Positions 25,740 through 60,641 of a DNA stretch of 64,000 nt are shown one piece after another. A model generated the notes under the pieces. That model did no database searches, had not been told where the DNA came from, and saw nothing but the letters and a program-made list of their open reading frames with translations. Positions within the stretch are counted from its first letter, which is position 1, and every line of letters begins with the position of its first letter. The position numbers were made by a program, and so were the translations under genes. The stretch comes from Plasmodiophora brassicae (taxonomy: Eukaryota): NCBI GenBank assembly GCA_036867785.1, contig CP145409.1, forward strand, positions 310,001 through 374,000. The letters are read 5' to 3'.

Positions 25740-26105
25740 GTCGTCGTGTAGGGACGACAGCCGAAACGCAATCGGCGATTCAACCAAATGCCCTCAGCCT
25801 GCTTGCTTGCCGCCCATCCCAATCTGGGGTGTCCATTCTATAAACAGAATTTAGCACCCGGCCCGATTTAGGACCTGCTGCTCCGACCGCCTAACTACCT
25901 ATAGTCGCTCTGCCGTCGACGACATAACGAGGCTGTGGCTGCCTCCCCCCGAATGCACTACTGGCAGTACGTGCCCTTGTTGACACCTGCCTTGGGCGAA
26001 CGTGAAAAGGTATTCTGTATTATAAACGGAACCCGTAGGTAGATCGTGGTCGTGGGCGCCGCCAAATCAGGATGCGCCAGCGTTGTCGTTGCTGACAGCC
26101 CTGCC

Positions 26106-28589
26106 ATGCACGTGTCGGTGGCCGGCCGGGCATGCCCAGGGTGTCGCCGCACGGTATGGCGGCCGGGAGGCGGCGGCGTTCGGCACGCGTCCGCGTATGA
26201 CGAAGGCCTGCTGTCGACGCTGCGGAGGCTGATGGCAGGGCAGCGCGGGTCGTCGCAGCCGACGGCCGCGTTCAGGGCGTTCGTGCGGTCCCCGTCCGTG
26301 GCGCTGGCCGCCAGATCCCTGCAACAGGAGGACGACCATGTTCGCGGGTGGACTGTCTACCAGCTCATGATCGGGTCCGACGATCGCCTGGACACCGTCT
26401 TCTTCGAACGGATGATGCGATTCTGTAAACGGCATCTGCCCGCCAAGGCCCCTGCTGTGTTTCGCGGCGCCATCGACCGACATGTCCGACTGTGCGACAC
26501 GATCTTCATCGACTTTGTCGATTCGTGCATGAAGACGAAACCCTGTATGGTTGCCGACGCGCTCGACCTGTACGCCCAGTGCGACTTCCGATCGACAAAC
26601 GCGCTGTTCAGCCTGGCGCATATGTGCCGAGTTGCCAAGCGGCCGAACTCGGCGATGTTCCTGGTGCCGGATGCCGTTCGCAACGGCGTCGAGGTCACCC
26701 ACAAACTGTTATCCGCGTTCACTGGCTGTTGCGCCGAAGCCAACTCGCCAGAGGCGGCGGATACTGCCGAAATGATCCTGAGGCTGATTCGGTCGAACAC
26801 CATTCCTTTCCACCGAAGCCAATGCTCGTTTGGGTACATAGTGAAGGCCCTGATGTCGCAGAATCGTCTTGATGTCGTTTTCGACTTGATCCAGTGGATG
26901 GATTCGAGGCGGTTCCCGCCGTCAATGGGGATCTTGACTGAGGTCTTGCGCACGCTTGCCAACAGTGGGCGAGCTGATGATGGATTCCAGATGTTCAATG
27001 CAATCCGAGACCGGGGCCACCTTGTTGGGATCCCCGAACTATGCCTCCTTATCGCATCGTGTGGTCGGGAGCGCAAACTCCCAACGATCGAGGAGTTGCA
27101 TTACTATGCGCGCCAGCGGGCGTTCCTACAGAATGATCGGTTGGCTTCGTCGCTGATTGACGCGTACTGCCAGTTGTCTCAGTTCGAGGCCGCCGAGAAG
27201 GTGCTGGCAGAACGGTGTTCCGGCTCAAAGCCAAGCGTCGTGGCCTATACTGCCCTGATTTCAGCATACAACGCGTGCGGGATGGCCCAGAAAGCAATCG
27301 AAACGTTCGAGCGGTTTCGGGACAGCAGCGTTCGTCCAGATCGTGCCATTTGCTCCAGTGCAATTGTTGCATATGCCAGTCATGGCAGGTTCTCAGACGC
27401 AGTTGCCCTATTTGATAGGAACCTCAGGGCAAACGTGTCCGTTGGCGATGTTCCCGTTCTTACCTGTCTTATCGAAGCATGCGGCCGTTCCTTCGAGCTC
27501 GCTGCGCTGCAATCTCTGCACCAGCTCATCGTCAACAAGCCATTTGCTCGAGAAGCTCGCGTTGCGAATGCCCTTGCGCGTTCGTACGCCCAGTGCGGAC
27601 GGATTGATCTCGCAACCCGGTTGTTCCTCGAACATCCATCTCCTGACGCCGATTCCTTATCTGTCTTGATCTCTGCATACGCGGATCATGGCATGTTCCA
27701 AGATGCCGTCAGGACGTACGACCGCCTGAAGTCTTCCCGGCTGCCTCCGAATGGCACAATCCTTCTGTCACTTTTGGTCGCATGCGGCAATGCCGGGGAC
27801 ATTGGTTATGCCAACGCGATCCTATCCGAATTCAAGGCACAGTGGAACATCTCGCCGGATCCTACCCACATCAACTGCTTGGTCGACATGTTCGGTCGAG
27901 GCGGGCAGCTGGACGAAGCCGAACGTCTCGTGATGTCTGCAGTATCCACCGATGCACTGGCGCTCTGGATGACCTTGCTTCGATTGTCCTGTAAGCACGG
28001 CGATGTTCTGCGGGCAGAACGTTCCTTTTCTACGATTCTCGCATTGCCTCCGTTGCCCGATGATGCCCTGCGTCTTCCGGAAGCATTCATATTAATGTCG
28101 AACCTGTATAGCAAGGTTGGCCGCTCGTCGGACGCGAAGCGTCTCCAGCGTGACATGACGGCAAAGGGGCTATCGCCAACGCCGATCAGGACGACGGTCG
28201 TGCTTCGCGATCGTACTGTTCGCTTCGAACCGGGTGACGGCCTGTATAATGCTGACCTTCGCTTGCGACAATCGCATTCCCGACTCATGGAGAAACTAAC
28301 TGCTCATGGATTATCGCCTGATAGTCCAGATGTTTCGGATCATGGTGCCTCACCAGTTGAAGGTCATGCATCGGTTTGCATGCATGGACCGGTGATTGCA
28401 GTTGCCTACGCTTTCAGTATTTCGCCAGCCGGCACAGTATTCGCGACCAAGAACGCCGAACTATGTTCTAGCTGCCATACAGCCATGAAAGCAGTATCGA
28501 CCCTGTATCAGCGCGACATTCACATTCGAGACGCCGTCCGACATCATCACTTTCAGGGTGGCCATTGCTCCTGTGGCGATTATTGGTGA
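26106..28589 (+). CDS. pentatricopeptide repeat protein with E/E+ and DYW domains, intronless, probable mitochondrial presequence
   Basis: PPR repeats (LASSLIDAYCQLSQFEAAEKVL; PSVVAYTALISAYNACGMAQKAIETF; HINCLVDMFGRGGQLDEAERLV). E domain FILMSNLYSKVGR. DYW domain KNAELCSSCH..IHIRDAVRHHHFQGGHCSCGDYW*. N-terminus is Arg-rich and acid-free. Confidence 0.95.
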   Translation: MHVSVAGRACPGCRRTVWRPGGGGVRHASAYDEGLLSTLRRLMAGQRGSSQPTAAFRAFVRSPSVALAARSLQQEDDHVRGWTVYQLMIGSDDRLDTVFFERMMRFCKRHLPAKAPAVFRGAIDRHVRLCDTIFIDFVDSCMKTKPCMVADALDLYAQCDFRSTNALFSLAHMCRVAKRPNSAMFLVPDAVRNGVEVTHKLLSAFTGCCAEANSPEAADTAEMILRLIRSNTIPFHRSQCSFGYIVKALMSQNRLDVVFDLIQWMDSRRFPPSMGILTEVLRTLANSGRADDGFQMFNAIRDRGHLVGIPELCLLIASCGRERKLPTIEELHYYARQRAFLQNDRLASSLIDAYCQLSQFEAAEKVLAERCSGSKPSVVAYTALISAYNACGMAQKAIETFERFRDSSVRPDRAICSSAIVAYASHGRFSDAVALFDRNLRANVSVGDVPVLTCLIEACGRSFELAALQSLHQLIVNKPFAREARVANALARSYAQCGRIDLATRLFLEHPSPDADSLSVLISAYADHGMFQDAVRTYDRLKSSRLPPNGTILLSLLVACGNAGDIGYANAILSEFKAQWNISPDPTHINCLVDMFGRGGQLDEAERLVMSAVSTDALALWMTLLRLSCKHGDVLRAERSFSTILALPPLPDDALRLPEAFILMSNLYSKVGRSSDAKRLQRDMTAKGLSPTPIRTTVVLRDRTVRFEPGDGLYNADLRLRQSHSRLMEKLTAHGLSPDSPDVSDHGASPVEGHASVCMHGPVIAVAYAFSISPAGTVFATKNAELCSSCHTAMKAVSTLYQRDIHIRDAVRHHHFQGGHCSCGDYW

Positions 28590-28638
28590 CAAACTAAAGT
28601 TATCCGCAAACTTGCCTACCAGTTTCTCACAGTTCTGG

Positions 28639-28975
28639 CTACCAGTTACATCTGACATTCAAGCCGGGCCATCCAGCTTTCCACCCTTCGTCGAGCAGGT
28701 GGTTCAGGTCGTCGACGGATGGAGGCCGTATCGCGTCGTTCCCGATGATGGCATTGCTGAAGCGATGAAGGTTCTCGATAGCAGTAGACTCGGCGAGTCT
28801 GAACTTATCGTCCAGCTCGTGTGCTGAATCACCTGATGTGAGCATGCGCACCGCCCAGGCGACTTTCTGCAAGGACGTAAACCCTGGAACCTAAGGAAGA
28901 TTCGGTTATAAACGCAACGTACAGGTAGAACAGAGCAGTCCTTACCCCAAGAGCATATTTTTTCTGCAGCGCTTG
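28639..28975 (-). mobile_element. PIF/Harbinger transposase fragment (Plant_tran-like), decayed, containing an intron
   Basis: LQKKYALG|VPGFTSLQKVAWAVRMLTSGDSAHELDDKFRLAESTAIENLHRFSNAI..RPPSVDDLNHLLDEGWKAGWPG matches the HTH region that precedes the Harbinger DDE core. It stops before the catalytic domain. Confidence 0.8.
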
Positions 28976-33631: not shown

Positions 33632-33790
33632 ACCTGGTCCCCCACCTCACTATCATGAAAAGCAACACGTTTCCCCATCTAATGCTTCGCTGAGCTGGAA
33701 GCGGACAGGGAGGGGGGGGCCCGCGCTGATCTCCTGCAGGAGCGGTCACGGACCGTGCGCGCGTCACTGGTCCAGCGGGTTGGCTGTCGA

Positions 33791-35060
33791 ATGGTGCTGC
33801 GGCGACGTGCGCGAGAATACCGGCGCGGCGAGCGTCCCTCGTGGGCGCCGGAGGCGTTCACTGAGGAGGCCGCCGTCGAGGAGGAGGAGGAGGAGGAGGT
33901 GGAGCACGATGATGTTGTTGATATCCACGAGGCCGTGCAGCGGGCGCCGCGCGTTCGGCCGACCACGTCGAAGATTCGCATTGAAGCGATTGTGGAGAGC
34001 GAGGCGGCCGTGCCGCCGCCCCATGTCCGGCCTGCTGTCGTTGCCGCCGTTGAGACCGCTGGCCTGGAAGTGCCGGAAGTCGCTGCCGCTAGCGAATCCG
34101 ACGAGGAAGACGTGGATGTTCGCCGGCAACGTGCTCGCATGAAACGCGCCGTCGAGCCTGCCCTGTCGGAGACAGTCGCGCCTGCGGCTGTGGAAGAAGA
34201 GGTATCTGAAGAGGAGGAGGAAGAAACGGAAACGGAGGAGGAGGAGGACGACGACGACTTCCAGGAGTACGGTCGACCGCTGATTAAGCCCGTGTTCGTT
34301 GCCAGGCCGAATCGCAAGACGACTGAAGAACGTGCTGCGCAGGATCAGCTAGAACGAGAGAGGGAAGAACGCGATCAGGCGCAGATTGCTGAGCGAAAGC
34401 GAGAAGCGACCGCCAAGCTGATTGACGTCATCGAACGTGAGGAGCTGGAACAGGAGATGGCCGTCAAAGCGTCGTTGGCCGAGAGGCCTGACGACACCGA
34501 TTATCCCGACGATGAGGTCGAGATTGAGAAATGGAAGCTTCGCGAGATGGTGAGGCTGCTGCGGGACAGGGAGGAGCGCAGACTCGCAGAAGAGGAAATG
34601 CAGGACACCGCGCGTAGAAGAACGATGACCGACGCCGAGATCGAGGCAGAGAAGGCTGCGGCGCGTGCCAACGCTCCTGAGAAGGGCAAGCTGAAATTCC
34701 TGCAGCGCTACCACCATAAGGGCGCCTTCTACCAGGACAAAGTCGATACCGAACTGTTGCAACGCGATTATGCAGCGCCAACCGGCGTCGACGCCGAGAT
34801 CGACCGGGCAGCCCTCCCGGCAGTCCTCCAGGTCAAGAACTTTGGGTTCGCTAGCCGCACGAAATGTACGAACGGGGAACGTTGCCCAGTTTGCTAGGCC
34901 TGGTACTGATCCTCGTTGCCCAGACACCCATCTCGCGGATCAAGACACGTCACGTGACGACCCCTGGGCGGCGTCGGACGTCTCCAGACCCACCGGCTAC
35001 AAGCGCGGCCGCGATAGCCAGAGCTCCGCCAATGGCGATAAGCGCTACCGGCAGAGGTGA
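33791..35060 (+). CDS. MFAP1: microfibrillar-associated protein 1 (spliceosomal B-complex protein)
   Basis: YRRGERPSWA; acidic runs; PLIKPVFV; WKLREMVRLLRDRE; KFLQRYHHKGAFY; DRAALPAVLQVKNFG..RTK|YTHLADQDTS. Confidence 0.94.
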
Positions 35061-35196: not shown

Positions 35197-36978
35197 TCAG
35201 ACCGCGCTCGCGACCTGTGCGTCCCGCCGTCGCGTCAGCCGCTCCTTCGGTTCAACTTGGACGACTGCTTGAGCAGCGCTTTGACGGGGCCCGCCCCAGC
35301 TGCGAACCTTGAAGGTCAGCATGCCGTACAACTGGAAGACGGACGAGAAGATGGGCAGGAACAAGATGTTCATCGGGTACCCGAAGATGACCTTGTAGCG
35401 GTTGATGTGGATTGCCCACGCGCTTACAAAGAACCAGATAGGCACGAAGATGAGGATCGCGAACCCGATCGTCGTGACGGTGCCGTGCCCGAGGGCCGCC
35501 TCAAGGAAGAAGACGTACACGAACAGCGGGCCGTTCTTGAGCGCCAGCAGCGCGATCAGGACGTTCAGTCCGGTGAAGTGCCTCCAGAGGACCGGCGAGG
35601 TCAGCATGTAGACCTCGTTGGTCAGCGTGCCCAGGTACCATCGGCGGCGCTGCTTCATCAGCGACCGGAAGTCCTCGCATCCCTCCGTCTTGCAGCGAGC
35701 GGCCGGGCAGAACCCGATCCGGTACTTGACGGTGCGTGATTCCATCAGCAGGTGCGTCAGGTACCGGTCCTCGCCCAGGTGCGTCCTGTTGAAGTCGAAG
35801 TTGTCCTCGGCGGTCATCTTCCCAAAGTAGGTCGGCGCGACCGCCTCCAGCGCCTCGAACCGCACCATGGTCAGCGCACCGGGCAGGCAGGACACCGCCC
35901 CGAGGTAATCCTCCGTGTTCCTCTGCAACATCTGCGACTCGATATACTCGCTGTCCTGCATCAGCTTGTAGAAGCTGTACGTGCCGGCCGTCTTGCACGT
36001 GATCAGGCCCGTCAGCGCCTCGCGCGTCACGCCCTTGTTCCTGTTCATGTCGTACACGAAGTGCGCCATGGCGGTCTCGTCCAGCTCAATGTCGGAATCG
36101 ATGAACAGGAGCAATGGCTTCGTCGGCATCGACTTGTAGGTGCGCTGCAGGTACTTGAAGGCACACATCTGCGCGTGCCGCTTGCCGCCGTGCTCGAACC
36201 GGCACGGCGTGATGATCAGGTTCCTGTACTTGATGTCGCCGATGAACGGGTAGTCGTCCGCGTTCGACGAGATGCCGAGCTCGGCCTGCCCCTCGTCGGT
36301 CGCCAGCTTGGCGTAGTCAGGATCCGGGTTGCCGCTCGTCAGGCAGTAGATGACGGCCTTGTACACCAGCGTCAGCTTGTCGTCGTCGAACGCCAGCACC
36401 AGGTGCAAACGCTTCTTCGGGTACTTGGACGTCACCACCGAGTTGATGGCGATCATGAGCGTCTCGATCGGTTCGTTGTAGATGGGCATGACGACCGTGA
36501 TCGAGGGTAGGCCGCCCTGTCGCCTGTCCTTGGCGCGTTCCTGGAGCAGCGTCGTGACCTCCTTCGTGCCCGGCGACCGCCGCCAGGCGTCGCTGGCGCA
36601 CCCGATTTTGAACCAGGTCAGGGCGATCAAGACGACGGGTTCGAACTGGAGGAACTGGACGTACTCGTGGTCGAAGATCGACCCCAGGAACGGTTTCTGC
36701 AGCAGGTACAGGCCCTGCCAGTTGACGGTCTGCGCCAGGACGAAGTACACGAACCCGTTATACCCCATGTAGGCGATCAGGAATAGGAACGCCGTCAGTC
36801 GGGTGAGAATCGGGTGCTTGCCCGCCTTCTCGCCGTCGCGAACCACCTTGAACAACGTGATGCAGTACGAGGTGAAGTACGAGAACGCGTGGAAGAACGC
36901 AATCAGCAGGAAGAAGGACACGACGCCGTTGGCCGCCATGACGAAGTTCGGTCCAAGCCATTGGACGGCGTCGACCAT
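35197..36978 (-). CDS. CHS: chitin synthase (GT2), intronless; start may be as far upstream as 37113
   Basis: MPIYNE; HGGKRHAQ; FIDSD; QDSEY; CLPGALT; LGEDRYLT; QRRRW; RSWG. TM helices at both ends. Confidence 0.92.
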   Translation of the reverse strand: MVDAVQWLGPNFVMAANGVVSFFLLIAFFHAFSYFTSYCITLFKVVRDGEKAGKHPILTRLTAFLFLIAYMGYNGFVYFVLAQTVNWQGLYLLQKPFLGSIFDHEYVQFLQFEPVVLIALTWFKIGCASDAWRRSPGTKEVTTLLQERAKDRRQGGLPSITVVMPIYNEPIETLMIAINSVVTSKYPKKRLHLVLAFDDDKLTLVYKAVIYCLTSGNPDPDYAKLATDEGQAELGISSNADDYPFIGDIKYRNLIITPCRFEHGGKRHAQMCAFKYLQRTYKSMPTKPLLLFIDSDIELDETAMAHFVYDMNRNKGVTREALTGLITCKTAGTYSFYKLMQDSEYIESQMLQRNTEDYLGAVSCLPGALTMVRFEALEAVAPTYFGKMTAEDNFDFNRTHLGEDRYLTHLLMESRTVKYRIGFCPAARCKTEGCEDFRSLMKQRRRWYLGTLTNEVYMLTSPVLWRHFTGLNVLIALLALKNGPLFVYVFFLEAALGHGTVTTIGFAILIFVPIWFFVSAWAIHINRYKVIFGYPMNILFLPIFSSVFQLYGMLTFKVRSWGGPRQSAAQAVVQVEPKERLTRRRDAQVASAV

Positions 36979-37241
36979 GGTCTCGTCGAGCGCGCGTAGT
37001 CCACCAACGCGATCTATAATGTCAATGAGGAAACGTAACCGGGATCCAGCGCACTCGATACGAAACCATAACGTCACGCCTAGGACACAGTGGAGCCGAC
37101 GGGCGTGATTCATGCCGGCTCCAACAACCGAACGTCTGCCACCCTCGATCAGCTTCCGGCGCCCCCCTGATGCCTCCTGATGGAATCCCTACGAACTTGA
37201 GCCACTTACCTAGCGATCATCTCACAAGCGTTGCAGAGCGT

Positions 37242-40001
37242 TTATGACATACACTGACTAAGGGCGTCGCGTGCCTCGTAGAAGTCTGAATTGGAGCGGG
37301 AGTCGACCTCCTGTTTGAGGAACGTGATGGCGGCCATGTTGTACCCGACGAGGTCCTTCTGCGCCCGCAGCCGCTGACGCATGCGATCGCGAAGTGTGAC
37401 GAAGTGGGGGCCCATCTCGTCGGCGGCGATCAGGCGCTGGTGGTGCGTCTGCAGCAGGAACAGGACACATCGGACATAGAGCTCAATGGCATCGCCTTGC
37501 AGAAGCATGTCCTCCAGGATCAGCAGCAGGCGCTTCGCGTACGTGAACGGCAGGACAACAAGGGCTACCTCGAGCTCATTCGGGCGTGCCTCGCTCAGGA
37601 CCTTGGTCATGAATGCGAACGGTGTCAGGCCGAGGAGCATCGGGTTCGATGACGGCTTGTCCGGTGTTCGACCTTCGAGGGACGCCAGCTCGGCTTCGAC
37701 AAAGTCGATCGCCTCCATGAGACGCTCACCGGTTCGCACAGTGGCCAGCGACTGCTTGTCGACGGCACTGGCCGACTGGAACGTCGTCGGGTCGGGCAGA
37801 CCGGACTCTGGCAGAGCGCCGACAACGCCAGCAGACTCCTTCTCGACCACGCCTTCTTCGAACAGCTCCTCCAAGCGTGTTTCCCGCTCCTCCTCCAGGA
37901 ACACTAAACGTGCAGGTTCAGACCAGGGGTTGAATTCCGATGCAGGCGACGCTACGGTGTACCTTGCTCCTCGGTTTCCGACCAAACGCGAATGGACCGA
38001 TCGTTGCCAGCGCTAACGAGCGTTCGTCCTGCTCGACTGACCGCCAAGCCCCAGACCTCTGCCTGGTGCCCAGACAGGGCGTAGATCTGTTCGAACTTGT
38101 CCGCATCCCAGAACCGAATCTGTGAACTCGTCAGCACACGGAACTCGACAGCACACACACACAGAGTTCATCACCTGCTTGTCTTTGCTGGCTGTGAACA
38201 CGTAATGTGTACCGGGGACGAACTTCACGGCCATGACACTGTCGTCGTGCGCCAGCAGCGACTTATGGCAGTCACCGAAATCCAGACCCCAGATCTTCAG
38301 GCTCTTGTCGGCGCCCGCTGAGCACAGCAACGTCCCGTCCGAGCTAATGTCCATGCAGAGCGCGGGCAGGCGGTGCCCGTACAGCGACAGGTAGAACTTC
38401 AGTGAGTCTTCATGGAACACCCGAATCGTAGCGTCCAGCATCGCCACCGCGACGTAGCGACCATCGGGGCTGAACTTAACGAACAGCACGTCTTCGTCCA
38501 GGCGTAACGTTCGCGAATGGACAGCGCCCAGCGTTCGGGTTCGCTTTCGGGACGATGTAGGTTCGCCGTCGGCATCCGCCTTGTCGATCAGCTCGAAGAT
38601 CCAGAACTTCAGGTCGTGATCGGCACCTCCAGTGACGAACCCACGACCGCTCGGGTGCACGTCGATCGACCACAGCGCGCCTGAATGCGCTTCAATGCGC
38701 TGGAGAAGCTGGGCGGAACCAAGCGAGTAGAGCTCCAGGTGCCCGGTCTTCGTACCGACAAGGACGTGCTGATCGCCAGGGACGAAGGCAATACAGAGAC
38801 CGTACCCAGACGGCAGTGTTCGAACACAGCGTTGGGTGGCCAGGTTCCAGACCTTAACGCTGCCGCGCGAAGCCGACGCGATCATGGTATCGTCGCGGCT
38901 CAGACAGACGGCACGAACGCCGGACCGATGGCCGGCCTCGTCGATCACATGGACAGGCTTGCTGATCTCGTCCGTTCCGTCGCCGCTGACGTCAAAGACG
39001 GCAATGGAGTTATCGGCGAGGCCGACCGCCAGACGGTCACCGGACGCGCTGAACGATCTCTGCTTGTCCTCGGTGCGGACGACGCGCTGCGATTCCAGGT
39101 AGTCGGCGGCCTGGACGGTGACCTCATCGGCACCAGCCGTATTGCCCTTCTCGCGCAGGCGCCTTTGCCGACGTTGCACCTTCTTCTTGATCTCGTCCTG
39201 GGTCCTGGCTCGGAACAGTTCCAGGTGGTTGCCGGTGCCCTGAACGAGCAAGCGCGACCCGCCAGCGGAGAACCGAATGCGGTTGACGCGAGTCTTGTCC
39301 GATCGGGGAATAACGCCCAGAAGGACAATGTCGGCGTTCGGGTCGGGAATGGACCACAGACGAAGTTCGGCATCGGTGGACCCGGTCACGAGGAATTGAC
39401 CATTGCCGTCGACGTCGAGGCTCCAGACCTCGGCATGGTGCCCGACGAGCGTCTGCGCGCAGTGCTGAGTTGTCAGCTGCCAGCGCTTGACGAACGTGTC
39501 CTTCGACGACGACAACAGGGTATTGTCCCCAACGAAACAGACATCGGTGACGGCGTCAATGTGCCCACGCAATCGAAACAAACCCGCCTGCGCAATGACG
39601 TCCCACATGATGATGTCGGTATCGTTCGACCCGGACGCGAGTCTCGACCCGTCTTTGTTAAAACGCAACGCGCTAACGGCACCTCGGTGCCCATTCAAGG
39701 TAACGATACACGTGGAGTCCGCCGTGTTCCAAAGACGGATGGATCCGTCCGAGTACCCAGCTGCGGCAGCCCCATCTGGTCCAACCGCGATTCGCGTGAC
39801 GGAGATCGGCCGTTCCTTAGACGTACGCTCAGGCGACATGCTGGTCACTAGAGCGCCTTGCTTGACATTCCAGACTTGAAGCGATTCCAACGATCCGGAT
39901 AGAACGAGACGCCCGGAAACATCAAATACGACGTCACTCGTTGGCGAGTAAACGACGCCGAAGGACGACGATTGCTCATAGCGCAAGTACGCCTTGACCA
40001 T
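37242..40001 (-). CDS. WDR3: WD-repeat SSU processome protein WDR3/UTP12/DIP2
   Basis: MVKAYLRYE; many GH..WD repeats; FYLSLYGHRLP; KIWGLDFGDCHKSLLAHDDSV; LEEERETRLEELFE; C-terminal Utp12 domain ELEVALVVLPF..DLVGYNMAA. The 3' end may include one more exon. Confidence 0.95.
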
Positions 40002-40279
40002 GCCGGCGACGGGTTCTCTCACCAGCAGCCGGTTTCCAGGGGGACTGCGGGAAGTCCGTCACGGACTCCGTCGCGGAGTTCGCTCGCTGATAGTGATAAG
40101 TGATGGCTCGGAGCAGTAGGTATGTAGGTGGGTACGGTAATGATTGAGCCGCGCGTGCTCTGGTACAGGACACCGAACCAAGCATCGCGGGTCGCCTACG
40201 CCTGGTTTGAGATCGGAGTGCAAACTCCTGTTCGCCGCCCTCGGTGTACCGTGACGAGTGATGCCCTGGCTGTGCTGTC

Positions 40280-55235: not shown

Positions 55236-58200
55236 CTAATCGGCTGTCTTCGCATGGGCATCTCCACGAGTGTACTTGAGAGCCACCGTGGTGATCACAC
55301 CGGACGCCAGGTTCCTGCACAGACACGCGCGCGCCCCTGTCAACCTATGTGGCTGATTGCAATCTCCCGACGTCCCATACGATAGCAGGATGTAGACGAT
55401 GATCATGTACGACATGAAGTACAAGGCGATGTTCCACGACGTGACCTGGATCGCTGCATACATCGTCGCGTGCCAGTTCTACACGATCGGTCAGCGTGTG
55501 CCGCTCTCAGCACCAGGCGCGGTAGTTGGCTCCTGTGCTTACATCGCTGACGAGCAGTTGCGTCAGGCCCAGGAACGCGTTCGCCAGGTTGTCGAAGTTG
55601 GACGGTGGCACCGCGCCGACGAGCATCCGCTCGAACCTGTGCGCCAGCATCTGCACGCCGACCATCGCATAGATGTACATGACGAGGAGCAGCAGCACAA
55701 CGAGGTCCTTGATCACCGGTACGACCCGGAACGTGCCGAAGATCAGGTGTCGGGTCGCCACCGTCTGCGTCACGATCCGGACGACGGGCAGGGCGGCGTA
55801 GAACCGCTCGTTGTTCTCGTTGTCGGTGTAGTGGAACCGGAACCCGGTCATGGCCTGCCCGGCCAGGCTGCCGATGAACGCTGCCCCGACGACGATGGCG
55901 TCGTACCGGTTGGCGAATTGGATCTCGGCCGCCCACCGCCCGATGTTGTACCGGGAATAGTTCCAGAACTGGGACGGCGCGTAGACGGCCACCTTGACGA
56001 GCATCTCCAGCGCCGACACGACGACGAACGCCAGGCAGGTCCGGTCCAGGTTGCGAGTCGTCGCCTCGTCGGACACGCCGTACAGGGCGACGACCCCGAT
56101 CAGGCCGATCGTCAGCAGGCGCCAGACGTGCAGGTAGAACGGGTTCTCGAAGAACAGGCCGCGGGCGTTCGCGCGCCAAGCGCTTCGCACCGGCTGCTGG
56201 ACGATGGTGGACGCGAGCACGCGTTCCGCCCCCGATATGAACCCGTCGACGTCGACGAAGCGCTTCGGCGGGCGCCCGCTGCCGGCCTCGTTCGACAGCG
56301 ACGACTTCTTGTCGAGGTCGCCGACGGCGGCGTCGACGTCCTCGGAGGCGATCGCCGGGCGCATGAACCGAAGGAAATGGTGGAAGTCGCCCATGGACAT
56401 GTGGCCGTCCTCGTCGTAGTCGAGGAGGACGAAGGCGGCGACCATGCCGGCGCGCGCCAGCACGCGCTTGTGGATGTCGACGGCGGCGCGCTGCCGCTCG
56501 AACGCGGCCTGGAACGTGCCGATGACGATGCCGAGGATGATGAACATGCCGGCGCCGACCATGAACGCGATCCAGACGACGTTGAACGCGTTCACGGCCG
56601 GGTACTGCATCTCGTGGTAGTTCTCGGCGGTCGACATGACGACGAAGCAGGACGAGATGGCGCGGACGACGTTCGTGAAGCTCGAGTTGAGCTGGTCGGC
56701 GTTGACGTCGGCCCGGAACACGGCCAGGCTGATGCACCCGCAGACGACGACCATCAGCAGGTACAGGAGCGACGCGTCGAGCGTGTCGTAGACGGTGCGG
56801 GCGAACAGGCGGACGCTCTCGCGCGTGCCCGCGTTCGACAGGACGTACAGGAACGGGCGGCACGGGACGTAGTACTCGATGCTGACGTTGCCGGCGACGA
56901 TCGCGATCCAGTCGACGACGACGACGGCGAAGACGACGATCAGGCCGATGTCCTTGACCTGGATCGTGCGATGGTCGTCCCACTTCAGGTCGGCCTGCAG
57001 GCGCACGCTGCGAACCGCGATGTACTTCGTGGCGAGGCGGGCGCCGATGAACAGCGCCTCGATCACGAGGCAGACGGCCTCGGCGACGACGACCGAGGTG
57101 GTGGCGCCGCCGGCCAGCAGGTCGCCCAGCGTGGCCGGCTTCGCGAACGACAGGCAGATGTGGACCGTGATCGTGACGGTCAGGGCCCATTTGACGACGG
57201 GCCTCTGGATCAGGCGGTAGACGCGAAGCGGGACCCGGGTCGGCAACTTCTCCAGCAGGCAGATGTGGGGAACGTTGAGCCCAGCGGCACCTGTGATGCC
57301 CCCCTCCCCATCGTCAGTGGCGGCGAACGTTTTCGCGTTCGGCCCTCGTACCGTCGACGATGTGGCGTCGGGCGCGATCCCAGGCGTGGCGCCGGAAGAG
57401 CTGACTGCTGATCGGGTGGTCGACCTGCCTCAGGACCTGCTGCTGGTACTCCCAGTCGGCGGCACGCGCCTCCTGGATCGTCGTCTGGATCGCGACCTTC
57501 AGGTCCGACGCCGTCCTGTACTTGACCCGTTTCTGGCCGCTGCGCCGATGTCGGATCGACGTCATGATGGTCAGCATCGACCCAGGGCCGCTCGTCGGCC
57601 GCTTCCCCGTCGTCGTCGTCGCTGTCACCCCGGCGGCCGACCGCCGACCGGCCCAGTCGAGCACGAGCATGAGGACGACGGTGAAGACGGCAATGACGAG
57701 CGTCAGGGTGTGGCGCTGGTCGGTGGCGCCGGATAGGTCGGAAACGGGGACGAGAGCGGCCACGATCCAGTCGTTGCCGTTGGCCGCATCGGCCAGGCGG
57801 ACGGCCCAGGTCAGCGGTTTCAACGTGTCGCGCTGGACGCTGGAGACCGATGTCGTCACCGAGGCAATGTTGGCGTTAGCTTGCAGGAGGAACATGGCGA
57901 GGTGCCGAATGATCGTTTCCGTCGACGTGGCGGTCGCGTCCGCGGTCGGCGCCGTCCCGTCCGACGTGGTCGACGCGACCAGACGCAGGCCCGACCCGGT
58001 GTCCTCCAGTACAATGCCGACCGCGTTCGGCGACACACGCCCCATCAGGGACCGCAGCCTGGCGACGATCACATCCGACCCGAACTCGACGGAGACGCTC
58101 CCGTTGCCATACGCCAGCGACGTCACGTAGACGGCGCCCGATCCGGTCGGCAGGTACGCTGTCCTGGTCGACGACGCGCGCGCCACCTTGTACCCGCAAT

Positions 58201-60641
58201 CGATGACGACGACGCCACCCGACGCGTTCCTCTCCGTGTAGCACGACGACGCTCCTGGGCTCCGCTCGATGGTCAGCGTCTCCTGGCCGGCCACCCTGAT
58301 GCCGGACATGAACCCATCGGGGCGCGTCACGTAGATCGCCGACGGAAACGCCGACGACCGCGTCCACAGCGATGCGACCGAGGCCATCGCCGTCGCGTCG
58401 GCCGCACGCGCCGCCTCCGCCACGACGGTCTTCGAGGCCTGCAGCAGGCCAGCGACGTCGGTCGCCGCCTGCCACGCCACCGACTCCACGACACGGTCGC
58501 GCTCGACGCCGCCGATCGCCCCGAGCGCCTCCATCCACGCGACCCAGACGACGGCGGGGACCAGAACCAGCACGACGAACGCGACAGTGGCGGCGGCGGC
58601 GGCGGCGTCGCCGGAGCCGTCGTCGTCGGAGCCGCGGCCGGCGCGCCACCGGCCCGCCGCGAAGACGACCGTGGCGATGCAGAACACGACGAAGACCGCG
58701 CCGGTGCCGATCGTCAGGAGCGCAATGCGCTTCCCGTACGTGGCCGGGAAGTCGTCGATGGCGAAGGCCGTCATCAGAGACAGGCCCGATGTCGCGCGGA
58801 ACGACGACGACTGCGATGCGGACGGAGGCGGGGCGGTGCCGTTGCCGCCCAGGAGCGCGCTCGGCAGCGTGCTGGCAACGACAGCGGCGTCGTCCATCAC
58901 GACGACGTCGACGTTCGGGCACGAGCCTACGCTGCTGGACAGGGCCTGCAGAGGGACGCCCGCACCGACGCGCCGCGTTGCGTTGATGGGCGAGACGACC
59001 GCGTACCCCCTGCCGCCAAACGGCAGGTCCACGATCGCGGTCCACAAGGTTCCCGCCGACGGAAACGGGGCGATCAGACGCCCGCAAGGCCATGCGCTGC
59101 CGGTGCAGGGCGGGCGCGTCACGACCGACTCGTTACGAACGGCGGCGGCGGTCACGTAGCCGGCGTTGTCGACGACGAACAGGCTGGAGACGTCGGGGAA
59201 CAGCTCCAGCTGGTCGGCGAGGGCGTCCGGCGACGTGAACCGACTGGCGGCCAGCCTGGCGAGCGTGTCGGCGTCGCCGGTCAATGCGCTGATGCGGTTC
59301 TGTGCGACCACGATGGACGTCGCCTGCAGGACGCGCTGGGGACCCGATACGGCCGCGCCGAACGACGAATGGCATTGCCAGATGAGGAGGACGACGCCGA
59401 CAACGCCGACGAGGACGACGAGGGTGGTGAACGTGCGGCTGGCGATGGTGGCGGCCACCCGGCCGTACTTGTCGCGAAGGTCCCGGACGAGGGTGGCGTT
59501 CTCGGCGTCGATGATGTCCTGGCTCCTGCGATCGGCATCGGGCAGGGGCAGGCCTTCGTACCGGTCCAGGACCGTCGGACGGAGATGGGATGGCATCTTC
59601 GTCATGCGCGTCTCGCTGCGATACAGCATCATGGCGAGGACGTTGTCGATCAGGTAGAGGAACCCCTCGCAGGCGGACAGGTTCGGCTGGGCTTCGACGT
59701 CGCGCAGCAGGGCGATCGTCGTCGCCGCCTGCTGTATCGCGGCACACGCCTCGTGCGTGTACCGCTTCGCGTGCAGATGCATCGGCCGGAACAGGAACTC
59801 GCACAGCGCCCTGTACCGCGCCTTCTCCCGGTGCGTCGGCTGCGCCGTCTGGCACAGACCCGACAACGACGCCCGGTGGTCGTCGTTGTCGGGCGCGAAC
59901 ACCGACAGGAACTTGCGGAACCGCTCCATGGATGTTGCCATCTGGACGGCGCTCCACTCCTGCGGAGGGGGCGGAAGAGTCAGCACATCAGCGACGACCT
60001 GACCAGCGACGGTTCGCCGCTGCACTGACCGCGTAGGTCGCATGGACTGCTACAGGGTCCGCGTCGCCGGCGGAACCGCCCGGCAGCGTCAAGACAGTCG
60101 CTCCCGTGGGCAGCACGATATCCAGCGTCGGCTGGTAGACGACCGCGTTGGCGTTCGTGGCCGTCGACGACCGCGATCTGTACATGGAGCGCAGGGCGCC
60201 GTGGATGTGCGGTTTCCTGACGGCGACGTCTTGTGGCGGGCTGGCGGGTGGTGCTGGTGGTGAGGGCGTTGCCGCTGCTGGCACGGAAAGCGTTCGCCGG
60301 TGCTGGGTGATTCGGGCGTGGCCGCTCAGGATCTCGTGGAGGCGAGCGGACTCCCGCGGGGGCATGTACTCGGTCAGGAACGCGCCGATGCCGATGCCGT
60401 TGAGCAGGTCCAGGGCGCAGACCAGGCGCCAGGCCTGGTTGATCATCGGGTCATCGTCGAGCGACCGTGACGACCCGCCCTCCGAGAATAGGTCGCTGTC
60501 CTCAGTCGTATCGGGGAGGTGGGCAGACGCGGTACCGCCACCCTGATGGGCGTCCCGGTCGTCATCCCAGGGGAACGATGGCTCTCGACGAATCGGCCCT
60601 ATAGACACCTTTGTCGACCCGTCGTCGATGACGTCGCCCAT
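55236..60641 (-). CDS. two-pore channel (2x6TM with EF-hand linker) fused to an N-terminal module of four TM helices and two Cache-like domains
   Basis: ORF 55507-57246 has pore 1 FVVMSTAENY, EF hand DYDEDGHMSMGDF, and pore 2 NFDNLANAFLGLTQLLVSD|NW. Intron 57291-57351 (GTACG..CACTGAC..CAG) joins it in frame to ORF 57314-60043. A further intron near 59965-60030 joins the 60641 start exon. Confidence 0.8.

Follow-up and report, generated by a model that had tools for sequence, protein, structure and literature searches.

A PPR-E-DYW protein of Plasmodiophora brassicae with HGP in place of the HxE motif of the deaminase active site

The gene and its protein product

The window analyzed here is a 64,000-nucleotide stretch of the Plasmodiophora brassicae genome (GenBank assembly GCA_036867785.1, contig CP145409.1, positions 310,001 to 374,000, forward strand). 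At 26106–28589 on the plus strand it contains a gene for a plant-type PPR-E-DYW protein, in which the HxE motif of the deaminase active site reads HGP. The open reading frame (ORF) comprises 827 codons plus a stop codon. It starts at the first in-frame ATG (26106) and is unbroken; the frame from stop to stop extends over 848 codons. The features of the gene are listed below by window position, with the evidence in brackets.

26106–28589, plus strand: whole coding sequence, without intron (ORF; contigs collinear in four of four runs)
26028–28662, plus strand: span covered by contigs, a weak hint of possible transcript limits (contigs, four studies)
26136, plus strand: C>T polymorphism, P11S, in one of four runs (contigs; same residue in the database protein P0002)
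26106–26237, plus strand: residues 1–44, Arg-rich, acid-poor, presequence-like N-terminus (composition only)
26238–27125, plus strand: residues 45–340, family-specific N-terminal module, all-helical PPR-like solenoid (break in hidden Markov model scores, AlphaFold2, Foldseek)
27126–27905, plus strand: residues 341–600, central PPR array, PLS-like (Pfam PPR, alignment to the PLS repeats of 9kfx)
27906–28175, plus strand: residues 601–690, E1/E2 helical motifs (9kfx alignment, fold of the model)
28176–28586, plus strand: residues 691–827, domain with the DYW deaminase fold (PF14432; 7o4e and 7w86 by sequence and fold)
28176–28205, plus strand: degenerate PG box PTPIRTTVVL, Gly missing (alignment)
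28383–28391, plus strand: H760-G761-P762 replacing HxE (alignment, codons, four of four runs)
28464–28478, plus strand: C787-x-x-C790-H791 (CxxCH), kept (alignment, codons)
28539–28586, plus strand: H814, C821 and C823, which form the second zinc site with H791, and the terminal D-Y-W (alignment)

Pfam searches revealed matches to PPR (100.3 bits) and PPR_2 (97.6 bits), the PPR matches beginning at residue 373, and to DYW_deaminase (PF14432; 70.4 bits, cut-off 24, E = 1.1e-19) at residues 755–827. When the PDB was searched with phmmer, the best match was the synthetic PPR-DYW protein 9kfx (E = 7.5e-85). This match consisted of one continuous alignment over residues 469–827, which takes in the last PLS repeats, E1/E2 and everything up to the terminal DYW. 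By sequence, designer PPR structures and PPR10 were matched as well. The AlphaFold2 model of residues 600–827, built from a 65-row alignment, had a mean predicted local distance difference test score (pLDDT) of 90.6, and loop 747–755 alone was uncertain. A Foldseek search with these residues gave six matches below E 0.001: 9kfx_A first (E = 1.6e-15, TMq 0.88, root-mean-square deviation 2.3 over 229 columns), then the DYW domains of OTP86 (7o4e, 7o4f) and DYW1 (7w86). The E1/E2 motifs are present by the 9kfx alignment and the fold; the Pfam E_motif alone was below threshold (20 bits, cut-off 27.3). The first 45 residues include seven Arg/Lys and two Asp/Glu, the first acidic residue being at position 32, and there is no hydrophobic core. 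By this composition, scored with no targeting predictor, the N-terminus resembles a mitochondrial presequence. Similar N-termini were found across the whole family described below.

The HSE column of the reference pairs with H760-G761-P762 in the 9kfx alignment. All seven zinc ligands are retained: H760, C787 and C790 of the catalytic site, and H791, H814, C821 and C823 of the second site, which is complete. The tail D825-Y826-W827 is also kept. The catalytic Glu is absent, its position being occupied by P762. The PG box (PTPIRT, residues 691–696) has Ile in the Gly column. The PG box is needed for editing. Because Pro stands at the Glu site and the PG box is broken, self-sufficient editing by this protein is unlikely. 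Hydrolytic deamination is described as requiring a zinc ion and the glutamate of the (H/C)xE motif, which serves as a proton shuttle (PMC11332814). Judged by its residues, the DYW domain most likely cannot itself deaminate cytidine.

The HGP motif is encoded by CAT GGA CCG at 28383–28391, with the Pro codon CCG at 28389–28391. At least two base changes separate CCG from a Glu codon. C-to-U editing of CCG cannot yield Glu. Contigs from four of four runs, each from a different study, span 26035–28610 and are collinear with the window, and the CCG codon is identical in all of them. Over the gene the runs depart from the window at one position only, 26136, where one of them has T for C, changing Pro11 to Ser in the presequence-like region. 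Ser11 is also found in P0002, a Logan-derived protein called from an upstream GTG. The contigs are 2605–2943 nucleotides long, and around the gene their starts agree within ~25 nucleotides and their ends within ~50 nucleotides. Such gene-sized contigs resemble transcripts, which is a weak hint, the RNA label of the runs being a guess.

These findings confirm the observation of a PPR-E-DYW protein with HGP at the catalytic motif. The original prediction had described a PPR-E/E+-DYW layout ending in DYW, which the Pfam matches, the 9kfx alignment and the fold bear out. It had read HxE as HGP with CxxCH and the terminal zinc ligands kept; the alignment and the codons agree, and where a Glu codon had been considered in the reads, the contigs of all four runs carry CCG. 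The gene is intronless as proposed, with a continuous ORF and no joint in any covering contig, and the suggested presequence-like N-terminus holds by composition only. The degenerate PG box is an addition to what had been observed before.

A family with a shared N-terminal module and two kinds of catalytic site

A full HMMER search through 1.84 billion cluster representatives yielded 14,819 matches at E ≤0.001, and the relatives studied here are the best 150 of these. All family counts below are counts of such representatives (clusters at 50% identity), of which an unspecified share may be P. brassicae genes. Roughly the first fifty of the best 150 relatives were 31–41% identical to the protein over nearly its full length, residues 45–340 included. 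In the remaining ones the identity dropped to 25–29% and the alignments began only in the PPR array. A profile of residues 45–340 was made from 36 aligned members and scored against 155 proteins. At 322.9 bits or more there were 53 entries, two of which were the query and its upstream-GTG call, leaving 52 clusters; 16 of the high scorers were outside the seed alignment of the profile. The next scores were 262.8, 212.3 and 177.6 bits, and all others were at most 164.3 bits. The protein is thus no singular oddity: it is one of ~52 clusters with their own N-terminal module. In print, three species-specific P. brassicae proteins carry the DYW Pfam label and nine the PPR label, with no explanation, in the supplement to the e3 genome publication.

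The N-terminal module had no Pfam match over residues 45–240. Its AlphaFold2 model (pLDDT 96.1) is a regular stack of helical hairpins, for which the best Foldseek matches were designer PPR and mitoribosomal PPR proteins. The module is absent from the plant-like matches. Mean pairwise identity among the paralogues was highest in the N-terminal module (0.40) and lowest in the central PPR array (0.33). Because the module is more conserved than the RNA-reading array, its sequence suggests a shared role that is independent of the target. The layout is presequence, common N-terminal PPR-like module, variable PPR array, E1/E2 and DYW.

Two proteins, P0074 (263 bits) and P0108 (178 bits), had intermediate scores with the module profile. 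They have complete catalytic sites and group with the family in the DYW tree, and they may come from relatives bridging the family and other DYW proteins.

An E2-DYW profile found 90 domains among the 155 proteins. Subtraction of the query duplicate left 89 rows: 37 from the family, 2 borderline and 50 plant-like others. The 15 family clusters with no DYW match, maybe fragments, were excluded from all DYW counts. The states of the two zinc sites were as follows.

His, Glu and both Cys all present: 18/37 in the family, 46/50 in the plant-like set
Glu present: 25/37 in the family, 48/50 in the plant-like set
Second zinc site (H, H, C, C) complete: 37/37 in the family, 50/50 in the plant-like set

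Catalytic completeness thus differed between the family and the plant-like set (Fisher p = 1.2e-5). Glu was replaced in the family in the forms HSV (three copies), HGP and HSA (two each), and HCT, HVD, HSD, HAC and HST (once each); further losses were of His (four) and of a Cys (six). The PG-box Gly was present in 4/19 incomplete copies vs 11/18 intact family copies (p = 0.02), and in 36/50 plant-like domains. Outside the catalytic columns, closeness to the family consensus was 0.50 for incomplete and 0.53 for intact copies (Mann-Whitney p = 0.24; query 0.50), in a coarse comparison over 144 columns. By these residue states the members fall into two classes, those with a complete catalytic site and those that have lost the elements specific to catalysis while keeping the ones that hold the fold. 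The query belongs to the second class on both counts, Glu and PG box.

On a 36-row family tree the incomplete state required 11 changes, and 135 of 500 label shuffles gave a number as low; the incomplete copies thus cluster no more than they do under shuffling. This tree is star-like and not optimal. One other family member, P0035 (31% identical overall to the query), also reads HGP. The arrangement of the query and P0035 as sisters was not rejected (approximately unbiased test, p = 0.83), and free tree searches, an interim IQ-TREE result included, did not join them. Constraining the HGP copies to join gave a tree that beat the short free search by 26.9 log units, showing that the short free family tree is not optimal. 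The HGP shared by the two proteins may reflect coincidence or common ancestry of the dead site.

In a quick-search tree of the 89 DYW regions over 144 columns, a branch with SH-aLRT 99 separated the 37 family rows and 2 borderline rows from the 50 others. Among the 50 others are the only named plant protein and a clade that has HAE and KPA-type boxes and looks like the DYW:KP variant. End branches in the DYW trees were ~0.7–1.2 changes per column. The family thus arose once and then went through an early wave of duplication.

Proposed function and alternative explanations

With moderate confidence, we propose that the protein binds specific RNA sequences in the mitochondrion and that its deaminase domain, although maintained in structure, is inactive. 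The product of the nuclear gene would probably enter the mitochondrion, where the variable central PPR array would bind an RNA target and the folded, zinc-binding DYW domain would act without catalysis. Two roles are conceivable. The protein could be a site-recognition subunit that borrows an active, HSE-bearing paralogue, in the manner of the plant E/E+ proteins that borrow DYW2 or MEF8; HSE-bearing members of the family do exist among the cluster representatives. It could instead be an RNA stabilizer or splicing helper in an intron-rich mitochondrial genome. The mitochondrial genome of P. brassicae is reported to contain 54 introns, to be unusual in its splice boundaries and to lack an ATG start in 9 of its 32 genes (PMC6823432), and it offers many possible RNA targets. 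Because the frame is intact, the zinc ligands are complete, the model is confident and the structural site is retained family-wide, the domain appears to be kept for something. The pseudo-deaminase reading of the original prediction is supported by the replacement of Glu by Pro with the zinc ligands kept. The roles it put forward, in RNA binding or processing or as a scaffold for an active paralogue, are reasonable candidates.

A wider proposal is tentative, and we regard it as rather doubtful. Phytomyxid mitochondria may have a hitherto undescribed, plant-like, two-tier system for RNA editing or processing, in which about half of the family members would be competent deaminases and half would be dead-site recognition subunits that retain the DYW fold with its structural zinc site and dock on active paralogues, the N-terminal module being a common docking or assembly element. 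If true, this system would be an independent re-invention of the division of labor between plant E/E+ proteins and DYW2/MEF8, reached by point inactivation instead of domain loss.

Several points weigh against an RNA-binding protein with an inactive deaminase domain in the mitochondrion. The presence of an active partner in the same cell is an assumption. The evidence of expression comes from contigs, and the label of the runs as RNA is a guess. C-to-U editing in P. brassicae was not found in the literature searched, and the authors of the mitochondrial genome mapped transcripts yet mention no editing (PMC6823432). The comparison of complete and incomplete copies with the consensus is, as noted, a coarse one. 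Metagenome scans found no orthologue DNA from which constraint on this copy could be gauged by dN/dS. A scan with the single protein gave no relative. A scan with a second alignment gave 80 loci, all at most 31% identical and aligned only from about residue 116–380 on, which are plant-type and not orthologues. Homologue searches with the protein or the alignment of 36 members did not reach the family, yielding nothing beyond the gene itself and some unrelated PPR proteins.

The protein might instead be a decaying, redundant paralogue that has lost catalysis, lacks a function of its own and drifts toward a pseudogene. Catalytic residues are missing in half of the family in many different ways (P, T, D, V, A or C at the Glu position, or loss of His or Cys), the losses lie scattered over the star-like tree as shuffled labels would, the PG-box Gly is gone from the query too, and end branches in the family tree are long (about 0.9–1.2 changes per column). 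However, the 827-codon frame is unbroken and identical in all four runs bar one single-nucleotide polymorphism, and the protein retains its seven zinc ligands and the DYW tail. Every one of the 37 family domains has an intact second zinc site, incomplete copies are no more divergent than intact ones, and the model is confident (pLDDT 90.6). We therefore consider decay unlikely.

A domain that is still enzymatic seems less credible again, either as a deaminase activating water through another residue or as a zinc-dependent ribonuclease that the PPR array would direct to its site. None of the catalytic zinc ligands H760, C787 and C790 is lost, and recombinant DYW domains of CRR2, OTP85 and DYW1 are reported to show zinc-sensitive RNase activity in vitro (PMC10318007). 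The same authors, however, consider this activity possibly artefactual, and hydrolytic deamination is regarded as needing the Glu of (H/C)xE (PMC11332814). A second family member, P0035, also has HGP, and its arrangement as sister of the query was not rejected; free tree searches leave the pair (31% identical overall) unjoined, and the shared HGP may be coincidence.

Contamination by host-plant DNA or a recent transfer from the Brassica host is very improbable. The layout is plant-type, the parasite lives inside plant cells, and some of the runs holding the stretch are labeled plant metagenome. However, a WDR3/UTP12 homologue on the same stretch (681-amino-acid ORF, 38013–40058, minus strand) matches a P. 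brassicae protein at NCBI with 100% identity over 90% of its length, which refutes plant contamination and agrees with the non-plant host that had been proposed. A chitin synthase ORF (Chitin_synth_2; 35197–37188, minus strand) lies ~7 kb from the DYW gene, and the GC content around the gene is 54–60%. The DYW domain groups with the family, apart from the 50 plant-like domains (SH-aLRT 99), and the N-terminal module is family-specific. The best plant-like matches are only 25–30% identical to the protein; because of this low identity, transfer from the present Brassica host is excluded on sequence grounds. The earlier suggestion of horizontal acquisition thus fails for a recent event. An ancient transfer of the DYW family, as proposed for DYW proteins of other protists (PMC11946409; PMC13386178), is neither shown nor excluded by the tree, in which the family forms one group but which is unrooted. 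Retroposition had also been suggested; an A-tract was looked for after the stop codon, and no such mark was found. The intronless gene may stem from an old retroposition event.

We give very little credence to a role as an effector that would be delivered into host cells and bind RNAs of the host's organelles. The support is circumstantial: PLS-class PPR genes of the host are reported as the most striking night-time response to infection (PMC13247141). The N-terminus, here and across the family, is Arg-rich with no hydrophobic core and resembles a presequence, not a signal peptide.

The following observations concern the rest of the window. The WDR3 neighbor is multi-exon, its 681-amino-acid ORF covering only part of the 881-amino-acid annotated protein. 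The NCBI record of this protein is tagged '(mitochondrion)' despite a 2.1-Mb contig and a nucleolar-type protein, probably through a labeling slip in the source record. An ORF for an MFAP1-type pre-mRNA processing factor lies at 33683–34897 (plus strand); it and the chitin synthase gene are ordinary neighbors that fit a non-plant eukaryote. A GC-rich block (68–70%) at 55396–60049 has long overlapping frames on both strands, up to 911 amino acids. Three of these frames had no Pfam match, and the long frames may reflect the GC content. A second GC-rich block (65–66%) is located at about 6–12 kb.

Comparison with known systems

Plant-type DYW factors outside plants are few, and for Rhizaria they have been in print only since 2025–2026, in paradinids (PMC11946409) and in a count of 31 domains (PMC13386178). 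A description of a P. brassicae or phytomyxid DYW family, or of its dead-site half, was not found in the literature searched, which did not extend to subscription journals. The architecture and the fold are known; what is new is the lineage-specific extra module together with a naturally inactivated catalytic site that recurs in half of the family. A large family of this kind in a major crop parasite raises the questions of whether clubroot mitochondria edit RNA and how inactive deaminase domains stay useful. The editing question bears on the oddities of the mitochondrial genome, namely its introns, its splice boundaries and its genes lacking an ATG start. Since the structural zinc site is always kept and the catalytic site and PG box are lost together, the family is a natural experiment on which parts of the DYW domain have non-catalytic roles.

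The closest known counterparts are the land-plant PPR-E1-E2-DYW:PG factors (OTP86, 7o4e/7o4f; 9kfx). The protein shares with them the domain order, the fold (TMq 0.88), both zinc sites and the terminal DYW. It differs in having Pro for the Glu of HxE, in the missing PG-box Gly, in the extra N-terminal PPR-like module of ~300 residues, and in an identity of only 25–30%; its host is a rhizarian parasite and not a land plant.

Plant PPR-E/E+ proteins that lack deaminase activity are described as recognizing the editing site and recruiting DYW2 or MEF8/MEF8S in trans (PMC9522420). As site-recognition PPR proteins with no deaminase activity of their own, they may serve as a model for the inactive copy. 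They have lost the DYW domain outright, whereas the P. brassicae protein keeps the whole domain and its zinc ligands and has lost only catalytic elements. A short 'atypical' DYW partner, a MORF or a NUWA-like factor was not found, although no search was aimed at one. CRR2 of Arabidopsis is a PPR-DYW protein reported to act in transcript processing or protection, with no known editing site (PMC10318007). By analogy, it could illustrate how a full PPR-DYW protein works outside editing; it acts in plastids, unlike the proposed mitochondrial protein of P. brassicae.

Plant-type DYW proteins outside plants are also found in Naegleria gruberi, in the paradinid Ascetosporea (Rhizaria) and in Agaricales fungi. 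Paradinids are, like P. brassicae, endomyxan rhizarians, and they show mitochondrial C-to-U editing (PMC11946409). These non-plant DYW proteins are reported in small numbers (1 and 3 per strain) and with the His, the Glu and both Cys conserved. Compared by published description only, the present family differs in being large and in lacking catalytic residues in half of its members. There is a natural plant precedent for a single such loss: P0003, an At5g03800-like protein of Punica granatum, has HSA for HSE, with CxxCH and CxC kept. Copies that lack Glu or are otherwise incomplete account for 4 of the 50 plant-like domains vs 19 of the 37 in the P. brassicae protein's family.

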